From a virus, in the UHGV virus genome UHGV-0361135: a DNA stretch of 15,908 nucleotides; one strand, 5' to 3'. Under the pieces are notes generated by a model. That model did not search any database. It had not been told where the DNA came from and saw nothing but the letters and a program-made list of their open reading frames with translations. Below, one piece after another: positions 2,482 through 14,168 of this stretch. The stretch's first letter is position 1. Each line of letters begins with the position of its first letter. Made by a program: the position numbers and the translations under genes.

Positions 2482-3180
2482 ATGGTTATGTTAGTGGATG
2501 ACTGTCCACGATGTGGATCACAAAAAATAGCGTTTGATGTTAATGGGCTGAATTGCACTAGGGTTTACAATGCATTGGGCGGGGGTAAAACATACGAGTA
2601 CGAGGTCTATTGTGTTTGCCGAGAGTGTCATAAAACGACAATGTTTCTTTGCAGACCTTTAACGAAAAATAAAACTTTAGATGGCTATAATTGGGAAAGT
2701 GGAATATTCGGCTTAAAGGAAGTTGCAGAGGTTGTTAGGCCTATATCACCGGCAGACTTAGCAGTAGAGGAGCCACCAGAGTTCTTACCTGAGCATATCA
2801 ATAGTGCATATGAGGAAGGGGCGAAATGTTTGGCTATAGGTTGTTATAATGCAGCAGCAACCATGTTTAGGCTTTGCCTTGATTATGCCACAAAAGGACT
2901 TCTTCCTGATGGGGAGCAAGGGCCTGCGCAAAAAATAAGGAGAAGCCTAGGGTTAAGAATGGAGTGGTTATTTGATAATCATCTACTGCCTGAAGCTTTA
3001 AGGGAACTAGCTGAATGCGTTAAAGATGACGGAAATGATGGAGCGCATGAAGGTATTTTGGATAAAGCTGCTGCTGAGGATCTTGAAGATTTTACCTATC
3101 TTTTTTTAGAACGGCTTTACACTGAACCTCAACGCCTTATCGAAGCCAAGACAAGGCGTGAACAAAGAAGAAACAAATAA
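2482..3180 (+). CDS. Zinc-ribbon plus DUF4145-like domain protein (232 aa); candidate single-gene defence or abortive-infection protein in cargo island 1
   Basis: GGGAGGAG RBS at 2466-2473, 8 nt before the ATG at 2482. The N-terminus has CxxC...CxxC (CPRCG...CRECH). The C-terminal region (AYEEGAKCLAIGCYNAAATMFRLCLDYATK...LRELAECVKDDGNDGAHEG) resembles the DUF4145 helical domain pattern as I recall it. Lower GC than the adjacent portal gene. Confidence 0.75.
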   Translation: MVMLVDDCPRCGSQKIAFDVNGLNCTRVYNALGGGKTYEYEVYCVCRECHKTTMFLCRPLTKNKTLDGYNWESGIFGLKEVAEVVRPISPADLAVEEPPEFLPEHINSAYEEGAKCLAIGCYNAAATMFRLCLDYATKGLLPDGEQGPAQKIRRSLGLRMEWLFDNHLLPEALRELAECVKDDGNDGAHEGILDKAAAEDLEDFTYLFLERLYTEPQRLIEAKTRREQRRNK

Positions 3181-8694: not shown

Positions 8695-8789
8695 CAGAAC
8701 GTGCCCCCGCGCACGGGCGGCACGGGGTGGCGAAAGGCTCTGCCACATCAAAACCCCGTCCACCGCCCTTTATTTCAGGAGAAAGCAGC

Positions 8790-9254
8790 ATGAAGTTTGT
8801 TGCGCCAGAACAGGCACCGGAACAGGCGGAAATCATCAGAAATACGCCGTTCTGGCCTGATGTGGACCTGTCGGAGTTTCGCAGTGTGATGCGCACTGAC
8901 GGCACGGTGACGCAGCCGCGTTTAAAGCAGGTTGCGCTGTCGGCAATTTCGGAGGTCAACGCAGAGCTGTATGAGTTTCGCAGACGCCAGCAGATGCTGG
9001 GGTATGCCTCGCTGGCAGAGGTTCCGGCAGAACAGCTGGACGGGAAAAGTGAGCGCATTCAGCACTATTTCAACGCGGTTTACTGCTGGGCACGCGCCAT
9101 GCTCAACGAACGATACCAGGACTATGACGCCACGGCATCCGGTGTGAAGCGAGGTGAAGAACTGGCAGAAGCCAGCGGTGATTTGTGGCGTGACGCCCGC
9201 TGGGCCATCAGCCGGGTGCAGGATGCGCCGCACTGCACAGTGGAGCTTATCTGA
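8790..9254 (+). CDS. L: Head completion/stabilisation protein (P2 gpL homolog)
   Basis: Start chosen at ATG 8790, which has an AGGAGA RBS at 8777-8782, rather than the longer track ORF from 8727. FWPDVDL..FR..MR.DG.VT..RL and the C-terminal VELI match P2 gpL. Confidence 0.9.
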   Translation: MKFVAPEQAPEQAEIIRNTPFWPDVDLSEFRSVMRTDGTVTQPRLKQVALSAISEVNAELYEFRRRQQMLGYASLAEVPAEQLDGKSERIQHYFNAVYCWARAMLNERYQDYDATASGVKRGEELAEASGDLWRDARWAISRVQDAPHCTVELI

Positions 9255-9457
9255 TGAAAGTACGTGCGCATCAGTATGACACGGTGGACGCGCTTTGCTG
9301 GCGTCATTACGGGCGCACGCAGGGTGTCACGGAGCAGGTACTGAAGGCAAATCCGGGGCTTGCCGAATACGGCCCCTTTTTACCTCACGGGCTGCAGGTG
9401 GAGCTGCCGGACATTCCGACCACCACCACCGTGCAGACCGTCCAGCTATGGGACTGA
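9254..9457 (+). CDS. X: Tail protein X (P2 gpX homolog)
   Basis: 67 aa; MKVRAHQYDTVDALCWRHYGRT.GV.E.VL.ANPGLAE.G..LPHG..VELPD closely matches P2 gpX. Confidence 0.93.
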   Translation: MKVRAHQYDTVDALCWRHYGRTQGVTEQVLKANPGLAEYGPFLPHGLQVELPDIPTTTTVQTVQLWD

Positions 9458-9460
9458 ATT

Positions 9461-9676
9461 ATGACGCTTGAGCGAATCAGCGCCTTTATCACGTATTGCA
9501 TCGCCGTCGTGCTGGCCTGGCTGGGCGATTTGTCCATCAAGGATGCCTCAACGCTGGGCGGCCTGATGATTGGTGTGCTGATGCTGGCTATCAACTGGTA
9601 CTACAAACACAAAGCCTACCAGCTTCTGCGCGACGGGCAGATCTCGCGGGAGGACTATGAATCCATCAGTCGTTAA
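9461..9676 (+). CDS. Y: Holin (gpY position), small membrane protein
   Basis: 71 aa with hydrophobic transmembrane segments and a charged C-terminus, located between X and the endolysin. It overlaps the K start by 20 nt. Confidence 0.8.
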   Translation: MTLERISAFITYCIAVVLAWLGDLSIKDASTLGGLMIGVLMLAINWYYKHKAYQLLRDGQISREDYESISR

Positions 9677-10169
9677 ACGCTGCCTTGTCGGGGCCGTGCT
9701 GGCTATTGCTGCCACGCTGCCGGATTTTCAGCAGCTTCACACCTCCGTGGAGGGGCTGAAACTGATTGCTGATTACGAAGGCTGTCGTCTGCAGCCGTAT
9801 CAGTGCAGCGCGGGTGTCTGGACCGACGGCATTGGTAATACATCGGGCGTCATTCCCGGCAAAACAATCACGGAACGACAGGCAGCAGAAGGGCTGATCT
9901 CCAACGTGCTGCGTGTGGAGCGGGCACTGGAAAGGTGTGTGAAGCAACAGCCACCACAGAAGGTGTATGACGCTACGGTGTCGTTTGCCTTCAACGTGGG
10001 AACTAGCAATGCCTGCAGTTCCACACTGGTGAAATTGCTCAATCAGCGGCGCTGGGCGGATGCGTGCCGACAGTTACCGCGCTGGGTTTATGTGAAAGGT
10101 GTGTTTAATCAGGGGCTGGATAACCGCCGTGCGCGGGAGATGGCCTGGTGTTTACAGGGAGCAAACTGA
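9657..10169 (+). CDS. K: Endolysin, GH24 (T4-type) lysozyme with an N-terminal signal-anchor-release (SAR)-like hydrophobic segment
   Basis: 170 aa; the N-terminal stretch CLVGAVLAIAATL is followed by the lysozyme catalytic region (EGLKLIADYEGCRLQPYQCSAGVWTDGIGNT), which matches the T4/P21 lysozyme E...D...T pattern. Confidence 0.9.
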   Translation: MNPSVVKRCLVGAVLAIAATLPDFQQLHTSVEGLKLIADYEGCRLQPYQCSAGVWTDGIGNTSGVIPGKTITERQAAEGLISNVLRVERALERCVKQQPPQKVYDATVSFAFNVGTSNACSSTLVKLLNQRRWADACRQLPRWVYVKGVFNQGLDNRRAREMAWCLQGAN

Positions 10170-10170
10170 A

Positions 10171-10548
10171 ATGAAAAAGAAATTAATCAGCGGGCTGTTT
10201 CTGATGTTATGGATGGCGCTGTTAATTGCAGCAATGGTGTATCCGCAGGGGATTTTTCCGGTACTGGCAGCGTCCGGCGTTTGGGTAGCCTGTTTACTGA
10301 CATGGGCGGTAATTCCGGTAGCACTGGCTGCGTTAATTAAGAATGGCTCGCTCTGGCAGGAGTTGAGGGCATCTTTGCTGAAGACCATTACCCGAAAAGA
10401 AAACGTATTTATCAGCTGGGTGATGCGATTGCTGATTGTCGTAAGTCTCGCCTGGACGGGGTGGGCTATTACCCTGGTCTTTTATCTACTGACCGTTATT
10501 GCCTTCTGGATCACCCGTAATCAGATGGCGCAACAGGTAGCAGCATGA
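10171..10548 (+). CDS. lysA: Lysis regulatory membrane protein (P2 LysA-like)
   Basis: Start chosen at ATG 10171 (MKKKLISG...), just after the K stop, with a GGGAG RBS. The protein is multi-spanning hydrophobic. The track's upstream extension from 10099 overlaps K and is unlikely. Confidence 0.8.
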   Translation: MKKKLISGLFLMLWMALLIAAMVYPQGIFPVLAASGVWVACLLTWAVIPVALAALIKNGSLWQELRASLLKTITRKENVFISWVMRLLIVVSLAWTGWAITLVFYLLTVIAFWITRNQMAQQVAA

Positions 10549-10973
10549 ACCGGTTGCTGCTGGTTGTGCTGGCGTTATTACTGGCGGCGCTGGGCTGGCA
10601 GACGTGGCGGCTGGCTGATGCCAGCCAGACCATCAGCACGCAGGCAGACGAGCTGCAGAGCAAAAGTCAGGCACTGGCAAAGAGCAACAGCCAGCTTATC
10701 AGCCTGTCCATTCTGACTGAAACTAATAACCGGGAGCAGGCGCGGCTCTATGCCGAAGCAGAACAGACCAGCGCACAGCTGAGACAACGACAACGCCGGA
10801 TCGAGGAACTGAAACGTGAGAACGAGGATTTACGCCGCTGGGCTGATACTCCTTTGCCTGCTGACATTATCCGGCTGCGGGAACGTCCGGCACTCACCGG
10901 AGGTGCAGCTTACCGTCAGTGGTTGTCCGCGAGTGACGCCGTGTCGGCTGGATCAGGCAGCGCCGCGCACTAA
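10545..10973 (+). CDS. lysB: Inner-membrane spanin (Rz-like, P2 LysB homolog)
   Basis: 142 aa with an N-terminal transmembrane segment and a long coiled-coil-like, Q/E/R-rich periplasmic domain. ATGA overlap with lysA. Confidence 0.85.
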   Translation: MNRLLLVVLALLLAALGWQTWRLADASQTISTQADELQSKSQALAKSNSQLISLSILTETNNREQARLYAEAEQTSAQLRQRQRRIEELKRENEDLRRWADTPLPADIIRLRERPALTGGAAYRQWLSASDAVSAGSGSAAH

Positions 10974-11939: not shown

Positions 11940-11942
11940 TAT

Positions 11943-11963
11943 AAAAATACATCTGTATTTTTT
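11943..11963. terminator. Weak AT-rich hairpin flanked by an A-run and a T-run between the convergent genes S and the TOPRIM-like gene; possible bidirectional terminator
   Basis: aaaaatacatctgtattttttc: ATACA/TGTAT-type dyad with an A-tract 5' and a T-tract 3'. It sits in the 25-bp gap between the two convergent stop codons. Confidence 0.35.
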
Positions 11964-11964
11964 C

Positions 11965-12816
11965 TTATTTCATTTCGTGTGGCATATTTATGGCTTTAAT
12001 TTTTTCGTGGTAATGATTAAACTCAATATGAGTATTGGTAAAATTGGATTCAAATGTATTCATTAAATTGGAATATAATGATTCATATGATAAGGATACT
12101 TTTTTTCCATTTTTTTCTGCAGTTGTGCTAATGTACCTATGTACTGCAGAAAAAAGAAAATGACCTCTAAGCCACTTTCTGTATTCTATCGATTTTGATT
12201 TGAAAGATGAATCGATGTTATCTGGTTCCACACCTAATTTTTCAATGATGGTGTTTTTGTAACTCGTGATTTTTTGCTCGCAAATTTCATTTGATTTTCT
12301 AGATTTCATGAAACGATCTGCACTGTCACCAATAACTGAAATGCCTTTTCTATAAATATGATTGTATATATCAAGTTTTATTAGGGGTTCCATTTTGGTA
12401 TAAAAGTCTTCTGTCCAAGAATCGACGTTGACATCGTTCATTATCTTTTGAGGTAATTTTCCGAGAGTTTTTATTGCCTTATATATGCCTGTTTTGTCAA
12501 TAAACGTGTTTTCGATGGAGTGCCCATAAGTTTTTACAATGCGACTATCAGCGTTTTCCTCATTTTCAAATGTAGTGAAGTCTGCATCACATGCAATTAT
12601 AATTTGAAGATCTTCATCAGTAACTCTATCAATATATTTTTTTAATTCTTCACAGCCGCCAACATCTTTGATTTCAACCTTTAATGAACTAGCTTTATTA
12701 AAGATGATTTCCCAAAAGCAAATATCATCTGGGCCTTCAACATAAACCATGGCTTCAGCTTGGTAAAATAAATTCATTACATTTTCTGCTTCGGCAGAAT
12801 AATGGAAATCATCCAT
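11965..12816 (-). CDS. OLD-family TOPRIM-like nuclease candidate (DUF4435-like; AriB-like or AbiLii-like), second gene of the island-2 defence operon
   Basis: Start chosen at ATG 12816 (MDDFHYS...), which has a GGAGA RBS 9 nt upstream and an 8-nt overlap with the upstream ATPase gene. The track start at 12900 has no RBS. The N-terminal VYVEGPDD (Glu at about residue 27) and the later IIACDADF (DxD) fit a TOPRIM catalytic E...DxD arrangement. Strongly AT-rich. Confidence 0.75.
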   Translation of the reverse strand: MDDFHYSAEAENVMNLFYQAEAMVYVEGPDDICFWEIIFNKASSLKVEIKDVGGCEELKKYIDRVTDEDLQIIIACDADFTTFENEENADSRIVKTYGHSIENTFIDKTGIYKAIKTLGKLPQKIMNDVNVDSWTEDFYTKMEPLIKLDIYNHIYRKGISVIGDSADRFMKSRKSNEICEQKITSYKNTIIEKLGVEPDNIDSSFKSKSIEYRKWLRGHFLFSAVHRYISTTAEKNGKKVSLSYESLYSNLMNTFESNFTNTHIEFNHYHEKIKAINMPHEMK

Positions 12817-14068
12817 GAACCAATTTCTCCATATCAAAGATTGCATTTCGATATTTAGAAGCCACTTCTGGTGAATGCGTAGCGGCGATAATTTGCGCAT
12901 TAGGATTAAGTTGTTTGATTGCAGGTATTATTTTTCGTTGCCATGCAATATGTAGCGATAATTCTGGTTCATCAGTAAGATAGATGAAAGGTTTGTTTTG
13001 CTGTAGCAAAGTTTCAATAAAAAGAATTAATAGCTGTTTTTCACCAGACGATAAATTACTATGGCTAATCGGCCCATGCTCGTTTTCTATTACTAGCTCA
13101 CCGGAGATAAAATTAAATTTTTTATCGGTTATGAACTCATGTAATGTTTCTAAAAATAGATTTATAGGAAGAAATATGTTTTTTATTTTCTCCTCGGATT
13201 TTAAAGACATCTTTATAATTCTTTGCGTCTTTCGTAATGCCTCAAATGATCTGTAATCTACATTTAAAATATTTCTGTTATTTTTTTCTGCAAGTCGTAA
13301 TTCTTCAAATGTTTTGGCAATAGATTCAACGTGAAAGTTAATCTTCTTTCTGACATCACTATCAAAAGCTCCAAGCTGAGAATATGCAGCTATTAAATTT
13401 CTACGTTCTTTTTCTTTATCAAAAGAAAAGTTAAATGTGTCATCGATACCATCTTCTTTACTATAAAGAATAGAAGCAAGAACCTCTTTCTGTAATATTG
13501 CAGAAACATCACGAGCTCTTTGTGATAAATAAAGTTGATATTTTGTTAGATTCTGCAATAATTGTTCTAATCGGTAATCAACAGGGTTGATTAATTTTGA
13601 GCCATATTTGTCTCTGATTTCAAAATCTTCACCGCTTCTAAGTCGGTAAACTGATAGAGAAGATAAAGCAACTAATTTATCTAACTCTAACTTAAGTTTT
13701 TCAACGTCTTCCTGATATTTTCTCCTCATATATATAGGTAGTCTACGATCTTCAAAGGATCTGATAATATATTTCTTTCTAGAAATTGTATATTCAAACG
13801 TAGGCAAAGCTTTAGTTATGTCAAATTTACTCACAACTTTTATTGTTTTAGTTTTGCTTCCTTCTTTTATTTTTATTGTTACATTATCAAAACTATTCTC
13901 ATTTAGTGATTCGAGTTCTAATGCCAGAACTGAGTGAAGAATATTCATAAAGGTTGTTTTACCGGTCCCATTTCGACCAATAATAATATTTACATCTTCA
14001 TTAAATGAACATGATGCATTTAGTCTTCCCCAAAAACCTTCAATCTTGACACTAGATAATCTAAACAT
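12809..14068 (-). CDS. ABC/AAA_21-type ATPase (419 aa; AriA-like or AbiLi-like, OLD-family ATPase-like), first gene of the island-2 defence operon
   Basis: AAGGA RBS 5 nt before the ATG at 14068. Walker A GRNGTGKTT near the N-terminus, ABC signature-like LSSGEKQLL, Walker B IYLTDEPELSLH and H-loop AATHSP near the C-terminus. Strongly AT-rich relative to the flanking phage genes. Confidence 0.85.
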   Translation of the reverse strand: MFRLSSVKIEGFWGRLNASCSFNEDVNIIIGRNGTGKTTFMNILHSVLALELESLNENSFDNVTIKIKEGSKTKTIKVVSKFDITKALPTFEYTISRKKYIIRSFEDRRLPIYMRRKYQEDVEKLKLELDKLVALSSLSVYRLRSGEDFEIRDKYGSKLINPVDYRLEQLLQNLTKYQLYLSQRARDVSAILQKEVLASILYSKEDGIDDTFNFSFDKEKERRNLIAAYSQLGAFDSDVRKKINFHVESIAKTFEELRLAEKNNRNILNVDYRSFEALRKTQRIIKMSLKSEEKIKNIFLPINLFLETLHEFITDKKFNFISGELVIENEHGPISHSNLSSGEKQLLILFIETLLQQNKPFIYLTDEPELSLHIAWQRKIIPAIKQLNPNAQIIAATHSPEVASKYRNAIFDMEKLVHG

Positions 14069-14104
14069 AGGAATCCTTTATTTAGTCCATGAGTAAATGC
14101 ACTT

Positions 14105-14122
14105 TGTATCATAACTGGCACA
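14105..14122. promoter_or_regulatory. TGT-N12-ACA dyad in the AT-rich intergenic region upstream of V; candidate late-activator site (P_V-like), with spacing to the V start shorter than expected
   Basis: TGT at 14105-14107, 12-nt spacer atcataactggc, ACA at 14120-14122. The centre is only about 55 bp from the V ATG at 14169, so either the leader is very short or the site is fortuitous. Confidence 0.35.
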
Positions 14123-14168
14123 AAACTAAAGAGTTTTTTTATCAATCTTATCTCGGCATGATTAAATT

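Follow-up and report, generated by a model that had tools for sequence, protein, structure and literature searches.

PARIS is a two-gene abortive-infection system in which an ATPase, AriA, is paired with a TOPRIM effector nuclease, AriB. The system of Escherichia coli B185 ('PARIS-2'; PDB 8UX9, 8V46-8V48) is the sole PARIS characterised both structurally and biochemically, and a mechanism of sequestration, release, and tRNA nicking has been described for it (PMC11464382, PMC12409363). AriA and AriB of B185 form an AriA6:AriB3 complex, in which AriB is sequestered via the region after E26 with R28 and R31 engaged in salt bridges (PMC11464382). Cryo-electron microscopy identified E26, D30, D88, E90, and E122 of AriB as the five acidic residues of a two-metal TOPRIM site (PMC11464382); defence and tRNA cleavage are lost in the E26A mutant (PMC11464382, PMC12409363), and R236 has been modelled at the tRNA D-loop (PMC12409363). 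In B185-type AriA, K39 of the Walker A motif is required, and E393A is a published ATPase mutant (PMC11464382). This study concerns a window of 15,908 nucleotides (nt), i.e., the whole analysed stretch of UHGV virus genome UHGV-0361135, and the open reading frame (ORF) at positions 11965-12816 on its minus strand. This ORF is very probably ariB, the effector nuclease gene of a horizontally acquired PARIS pair, which a P2-like E. coli prophage carries as cargo in its S/V slot (orf30).

Standard defence-annotation profiles already pick up the ariAB pair of the window. The 283-amino-acid (aa) protein matches Pfam DUF4435 (1.1e-25, 91.3 bits) and the PADLOC AriB model (2.3e-24), and its family is large, with 1,969 representatives at E <= 0.001. 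The published detection rule for PARIS asks for adjacent genes encoding an ATPase with an AAA_15 score of at least 32 bits or an AAA_21 score of at least 27 bits, plus a protein with a DUF4435 score of at least 27 bits (Rousset et al. 2022, PMC9122126). The scores of the 283-aa protein and of the upstream 419-aa protein (Table 1) all lie above these thresholds, and the two genes overlap by 8 nt. The upstream protein matches the solved AriA (8UX9/8V45) at about 6e-17, and K37 of its Walker A motif aligns to K39 of B185-type AriA; together with its Walker B motif, an LSSGE signature, and the H-loop residue H398, this marks it as an ABC/Rad50-type ATPase with intact motifs.

The original prediction, which was made from the sequence and its translation, proposed a Glu near residue 27, within VYVEGPDD, as the active-site Glu, and a DxD within IIACDADF as a further TOPRIM motif; in the translated protein these are E27 and D77-A78-D79. 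For comparison, the B185 AriB sequence was obtained via a Dryocola locus (L002, 5377-6303) with an AriB near-identical to PDB 8ux9_A, and its family was then gathered for a profile. When the window-family and B185-family profiles were compared using hhalign, window residues 22-120 were aligned with 94.4% probability (E 9.2e-8), up from 45.9% when the two single sequences were compared. In this alignment, E27 maps to E26, the residue whose replacement by Ala abolishes defence (PMC11464382), and D77 and D79 map to D88 and E90, so that both proposed motifs fall on published AriB catalytic positions and the prediction withstands its own refutation test. D31 and E102, which the prediction did not name, match D30 and E122 and complete the five-residue site. 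All five residues are invariant in an alignment of 31 relatives and 98-99% conserved in one of 197. When B185 AriB was searched with the 197-sequence profile (hmmsearch), GHSxEN was matched correctly and the DxD region was misplaced; preference was given to the hhalign map, which fits both the published residues and the predicted strand positions. The RGH motif of the window protein (R217-H219) was matched to the invariant R236-G237-H238 of the B185 family by motif and not by the hhalign alignment.

The predicted structure agrees with this residue map. An AlphaFold model based on the alignment of 31 relatives reached a mean predicted local distance difference test score (pLDDT) of 90.5 and displays the TOPRIM topology that had been anticipated, with E27 after strand 22-26, D77/D79 after strand 73-76, and E102 after strand 93-95. 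Its top Foldseek match is AriB itself (8ux9_A, probability 1.00, 17% identity), and the protein combines the TOPRIM domain with the C-terminal helical DUF4435 domain of the AriB-type fold. These results place the window ariAB pair, itself uncharacterised, in a defence family that is already known and well studied, and the earlier reading of the gene is upheld.

Several observations weigh against the assignment. The AriB in PDB was not found by phmmer with the window protein, nor with the 31-sequence family profile, and the identity between the window and B185 proteins is 17-18%. According to the hhalign map, the AriA-contact residues R28 and R31 of B185 are replaced by P29 and I32, and neither of the two lysines that clamp the tRNA anticodon loop in the published B185 model is kept: E58 stands opposite K60, and K64 belongs to a stretch of 5 residues that the window protein lacks. 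The middle of the window AriA (about residues 50-230), which corresponds to the Ocr-binding pore region in B185, has no detectable similarity to B185 AriA, and the literature consulted reports no experiment on the window clade. The lack of similarity in the middle of AriA agrees with the published variability of the pore residues, which are poorly conserved among 11 PARIS clades while the effector part is shared (PMC11464382). The window AriB family has a conserved F34-W35 near the AriA-contact positions of B185. Pfam could not bridge the two AriB families because the B185-type AriB of Dryocola has no Pfam match at E <= 0.01, whereas the window AriB is a clear DUF4435 member; the protein that defines PARIS is the poorer DUF4435 member of the two. 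Relatives of the B185-type AriB carry no precomputed Pfam domain.

The lysine clamp, which underlies the specificity of B185 for tRNA-Lys(UUU), is absent from the window AriB, and this loss bears on substrate choice rather than on PARIS family membership. It would also fit a PARIS-like pair whose nuclease cuts phage or host DNA instead of tRNA, as Gabija GajA does. DNA is indeed the substrate of some TOPRIM nucleases, GajA among them (PMC12445682), and the model of the window AriB also resembles OLD-family TOPRIM domains; GajA was only a weak Foldseek match of that model (E 0.16). A DNA-cutting nuclease is considered unlikely here. The window pair most likely works as PARIS does, given its homology with the B185 system. 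AriA oligomers would hold AriB inactive until binding of a phage protein to AriA, together with ATP, frees AriB; the freed nuclease would dimerise and, using Mg2+, nick host tRNA to yield ends with a 3'-OH and a 5'-phosphate, and translation would halt and infection abort, by which the lysogen population and the prophage would be protected. The assembly, trigger, target, and defence activity proposed for the window locus are thus those of B185 PARIS, carried over by homology. Since the contact arginines, the clamp lysines, and the AriA pore region diverge, assembly, trigger, and substrate may all differ from those of B185, and trigger and substrate can therefore not be transferred with confidence to the window pair. 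No tRNA genes are present within the window, so no decoy tRNA is carried there.

The start codon of ariB decides the N-terminus of the nuclease. Translation of 11965-12816 gives 283 aa beginning with MDDFHYS, whereas the longest mechanical ORF, 11965-12900 on the same strand, gives 311 aa and is 28 codons longer. A 311-aa product with a 28-residue N-terminal extension would be permitted by the window sequence, in which this ORF is open. However, the 20 nt preceding the ATG at 12900 (aatcaaacaacttaatccta) contain no Shine-Dalgarno-like run, in line with the prediction that this upstream ATG has no ribosome-binding site; RefSeq assigns 283 aa to the product of the identical locus (WP_033805308.1), and 159 of the 197 aligned relatives begin at the same Met column. 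The extension is moreover impossible in six homologous loci (Enterobacter, Edwardsiella, two of Yersinia, Shewanella, and Xenorhabdus), where a TAG or TAA stands one codon 5' of the conserved ATG. These stop codons are the strongest start-codon evidence. The window carries TGG in their place, by which 37 codons are opened, and the 311-aa ORF is accordingly a longest-ORF artefact, an accident of the window sequence; the longer product can be dismissed almost with certainty. The ATG at 12816, the start that had been proposed, is the correct one. The lengths of 51 close relatives agree with it (277-285 aa, except for two shorter proteins of 157 and 266 aa).

The sequence statements of the original prediction all hold, apart from one small correction to a coordinate. 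The 8-nt overlap between the ATPase gene and ariB was read correctly in it and is retained in six of seven related loci, the Pasteurella relative alone having a short gap instead. It appears as ATGGNTGA or ATGGATAA in the Enterobacter, Edwardsiella, Yersinia, Shewanella, and Xenorhabdus loci, and GGAG is kept at the same spacing in five of the six homologous loci that have the overlap. As the overlap is real and conserved, translational coupling of ariA and ariB is plausible. Since AriA and AriB form a 6:3 assembly in the solved complex, AriA6:AriB3 (PMC11464382), the overlap does not imply the fixed stoichiometry that had also been proposed. For the window locus, the AriB-like fold, the active-site residues, the ATPase motifs of AriA, the gene pairing with its conserved overlap, and the 283-aa start are directly established. 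The positions of all features are listed in Table 1.

Table 1. Features of the ariAB cassette in the window (positions on the 15,908-nt stretch).
Feature	Position	Strand	Basis or remarks
ariB, true coding sequence, 283-aa DUF4435/TOPRIM effector nuclease, stop included	11965..12816	-	
Codon for E27, predicted catalytic/metal-binding Glu, end of strand beta1	12736..12738	-	aligns to AriB E26; 98% conserved in 197 relatives; beta1 = residues 22-26 in model
Codon for D31, second acidic residue of VEGxDD motif	12724..12726	-	aligns to AriB D30; invariant in 31-relative alignment
Codons for D77-A78-D79, TOPRIM DxD motif directly after strand beta3	12580..12588	-	aligns to AriB D88-R89-E90; 99% and 98% conserved; beta3 = residues 73-76
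Codons for E102-N103 of GHSIEN motif, fifth acidic TOPRIM residue	12508..12513	-	aligns to AriB E122-N123; 99% conserved
Codons for R217-G218-H219, RGH motif of C-terminal helical domain	12160..12168	-	R217 at least 90% conserved, G218/H219 invariant among 31 relatives
Spurious upstream in-frame ATG, start of 311-aa longest ORF	12898..12900	-	no ribosome-binding site upstream; frame shut one codon before true ATG in six homologous loci
GGAGA ribosome-binding site for ariB, within last ariA codons	12826..12830	-	read from sequence; 9 nt upstream of ATG 12816-12814
ariA stop / ariB start overlap, 8 nt, ATGGATGA	12809..12816	-	ariA stop TGA at 12811-12809
ariA, 419-aa ABC-type ATPase, sensor/scaffold partner	12809..14068	-	AAA_21 82.3, AAA_15 64.6 bits; PADLOC AriA 5.7e-40; PDB 8ux9_B 6.1e-17
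AriA Walker A, GRNGTGKTT (K37)	13952..13978	-	aligns to GKNGAGKST of B185-type AriA
AriA Walker B, D366-E367	12968..12973	-	aligns to D392-E393 of B185-type AriA
AAGGA ribosome-binding site for ariA, 5 nt before ATG	14074..14078	-	read from sequence
TATGAT, putative -10 of cassette promoter (inferred)	14108..14113	-	inside block conserved among three S/V-slot loci
Cargo insert of low GC in P2-like prophage, flanked by gpS (ends 11939) and gpV (starts 14169)	11940..14168	.	GC 30-33% vs 52-59% in flanks; annotation of identical locus; slot empty in L013

The cassette lies on the strand opposite to the flanking tail genes S and V, and its low GC content relative to the flanks points to foreign acquisition of ariAB. 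The S/V interval is the P2 orf30 position, long known to harbour foreign genes (PMC3091744, PMC6823313). The ariAB pair is conserved in seven loci of six other genera, most of them within prophages. Prophages of Enterobacter and Edwardsiella likewise have it in the S/V slot; in Xenorhabdus it occupies the cos-adjacent hotspot, in Yersinia it neighbours the CI repressor gene, and in Shewanella and Pasteurella it is found at chromosomal sites. Among 5,426 complete E. coli genomes, 25 carry the window cassette, and about 1,049 have a similar gene V. Escherichia phage vB_EcoM-813R9 (ON470620.1, Peduoviridae; 8786-10889) holds an ariAB that is 100% identical to that of the window; its record labels the two genes merely 'putative enzyme with ATPase activity' and 'hypothetical protein'. 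A scan of viral contigs with an AriA fragment gave no matches.

Upstream of ariA, a block of about 30 nt that contains TATGAT is kept in the three S/V-slot loci (window, Enterobacter, and Edwardsiella) and not in loci of other contexts, which suggests that the promoter region travelled along with the cassette. The consensus promoter and terminator scan found nothing above background; it did not list TATGAT, for which no good -35 was found.

Such a mobile two-gene cassette may also be read as a toxin-antitoxin addiction module that mainly stabilises the prophage instead of sensing phage. PDB entries 8V45-8V49 deposit AriA as 'AriA antitoxin', a published description likens PARIS to type II toxin-antitoxin systems (PMC13064643), and Pfam AAA_21 is named for the putative AbiEii toxin. 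However, deletion of either gene of B185 PARIS is non-toxic and abolishes defence (PMC9122126), and the cassette occurs also at other prophage cargo positions, including the cos-adjacent defence hotspot (L011), as well as at chromosomal sites. Addiction as the main function is therefore judged very improbable, and a phage-sensing PARIS pair is the preferred reading.

Other cargo was seen in the same slot and elsewhere in the prophage. In four E. coli P2-like prophages (L013-L016) the S/V slot is variable, being empty (68 bp) in one genome and holding reverse-strand ORFs of 176, 283, or 301 aa, without significant Pfam or PADLOC match, in the other three. The sole match of the 301-aa ORF is SBDS_domain_II, below threshold (E 2.6e-4, 21.3 bits vs the 27.2 cut-off). 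The 283-aa ORF (L015) was considered as an orphan AriB on account of its equal length and was rejected, as it is not a DUF4435 protein. These three ORFs are candidate uncharacterised cargo or defence genes. At 2482-3180 on the plus strand, directly before the portal gene, the window encodes a protein of 232 aa that matches Pfam DUF4145 (4.5e-7) and, weakly, the PADLOC model PD-T7-4 (1.2e-6). Rousset et al. 2022 described this cos-adjacent position as a P2 defence hotspot, and the prophage may carry a second defence locus there. The small neighbouring ORFs at 1436-1966 and 2028-2246, both on the minus strand, have no family matches.

With this assignment, genes publicly named 'DUF4435 domain-containing protein', 'AAA family ATPase', or 'hypothetical protein' receive the AriA/AriB label, the start codon of ariB is settled, and P2-like prophages are seen to carry PARIS in the orf30 slot besides the published cos-adjacent hotspot. 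The ariAB finding opens no new question by itself; as the window clade is remote from the B185 system, it is a useful comparison for trigger and tRNA specificity between clades. More tentatively, and with the odds somewhat against it, the clade (DxD-type DUF4435, without the B185 clamp lysines, and with changed R28/R31 positions) might respond to another phage trigger than B185 PARIS and cleave another set of tRNAs and, separately, the S/V slot might be a further undescribed defence hotspot, its 176-, 283-, and 301-aa ORFs being new anti-phage genes.

Of the known systems that combine an ATPase with a TOPRIM nuclease, the OLD family (P2 Old, class 2 OLD of Burkholderia/Xanthomonas, and Thermus OLD) has both in one polypeptide, whereas the window has two genes. 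The window AriB scores 13.1 bits against the Pfam OLD-like TOPRIM family PF20469, below the 23.2 cut-off, and is not an OLD member; AriB alone of the two has the helical DUF4435 domain at its C-terminus. Gabija consists of GajA, a fused ATPase-TOPRIM protein, and GajB, a UvrD-type helicase, while the window pair is flanked by the tail genes S and V, with no helicase. The lactococcal AbiL system (AbiLi/AbiLii) is likewise a two-gene abortive-infection system of an ATPase and a predicted TOPRIM protein (PMC13064643); AbiLii is reported to have no significant sequence similarity to AriB and a model that superposes poorly on that of AriB (PMC13064643), and no AbiL model was among the PADLOC matches of the window AriB. 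For its two-metal active site, AriB is reported to have its closest structural counterpart in RNase M5 (PMC12409363).

Within PARIS, the other variants, namely 'PARIS-1' of E. coli O42, the cos-adjacent P2 hotspot variant (Rousset et al. 2022), and the 11 clades of Burman et al. 2024, share the architecture of an ATPase plus a DUF4435 protein, and the AriB sequences in the supplements of PMC9122126 differ from the window AriB. Compared with B185, the window family has DxD instead of DxE, its AriB is shorter (283 vs 308 aa), the gene overlap is longer (8 nt vs 4 nt in the B185-type Dryocola locus), and the carrier of the pair is a P2-like prophage (S/V slot) instead of a P4-like satellite. Both AriB proteins have the five acidic TOPRIM positions and the GHSxEN and RGH motifs in common, both genes lie directly downstream of, and overlap with, an AriA-type ABC ATPase gene, and both systems reside on mobile elements of the P2/P4 system.
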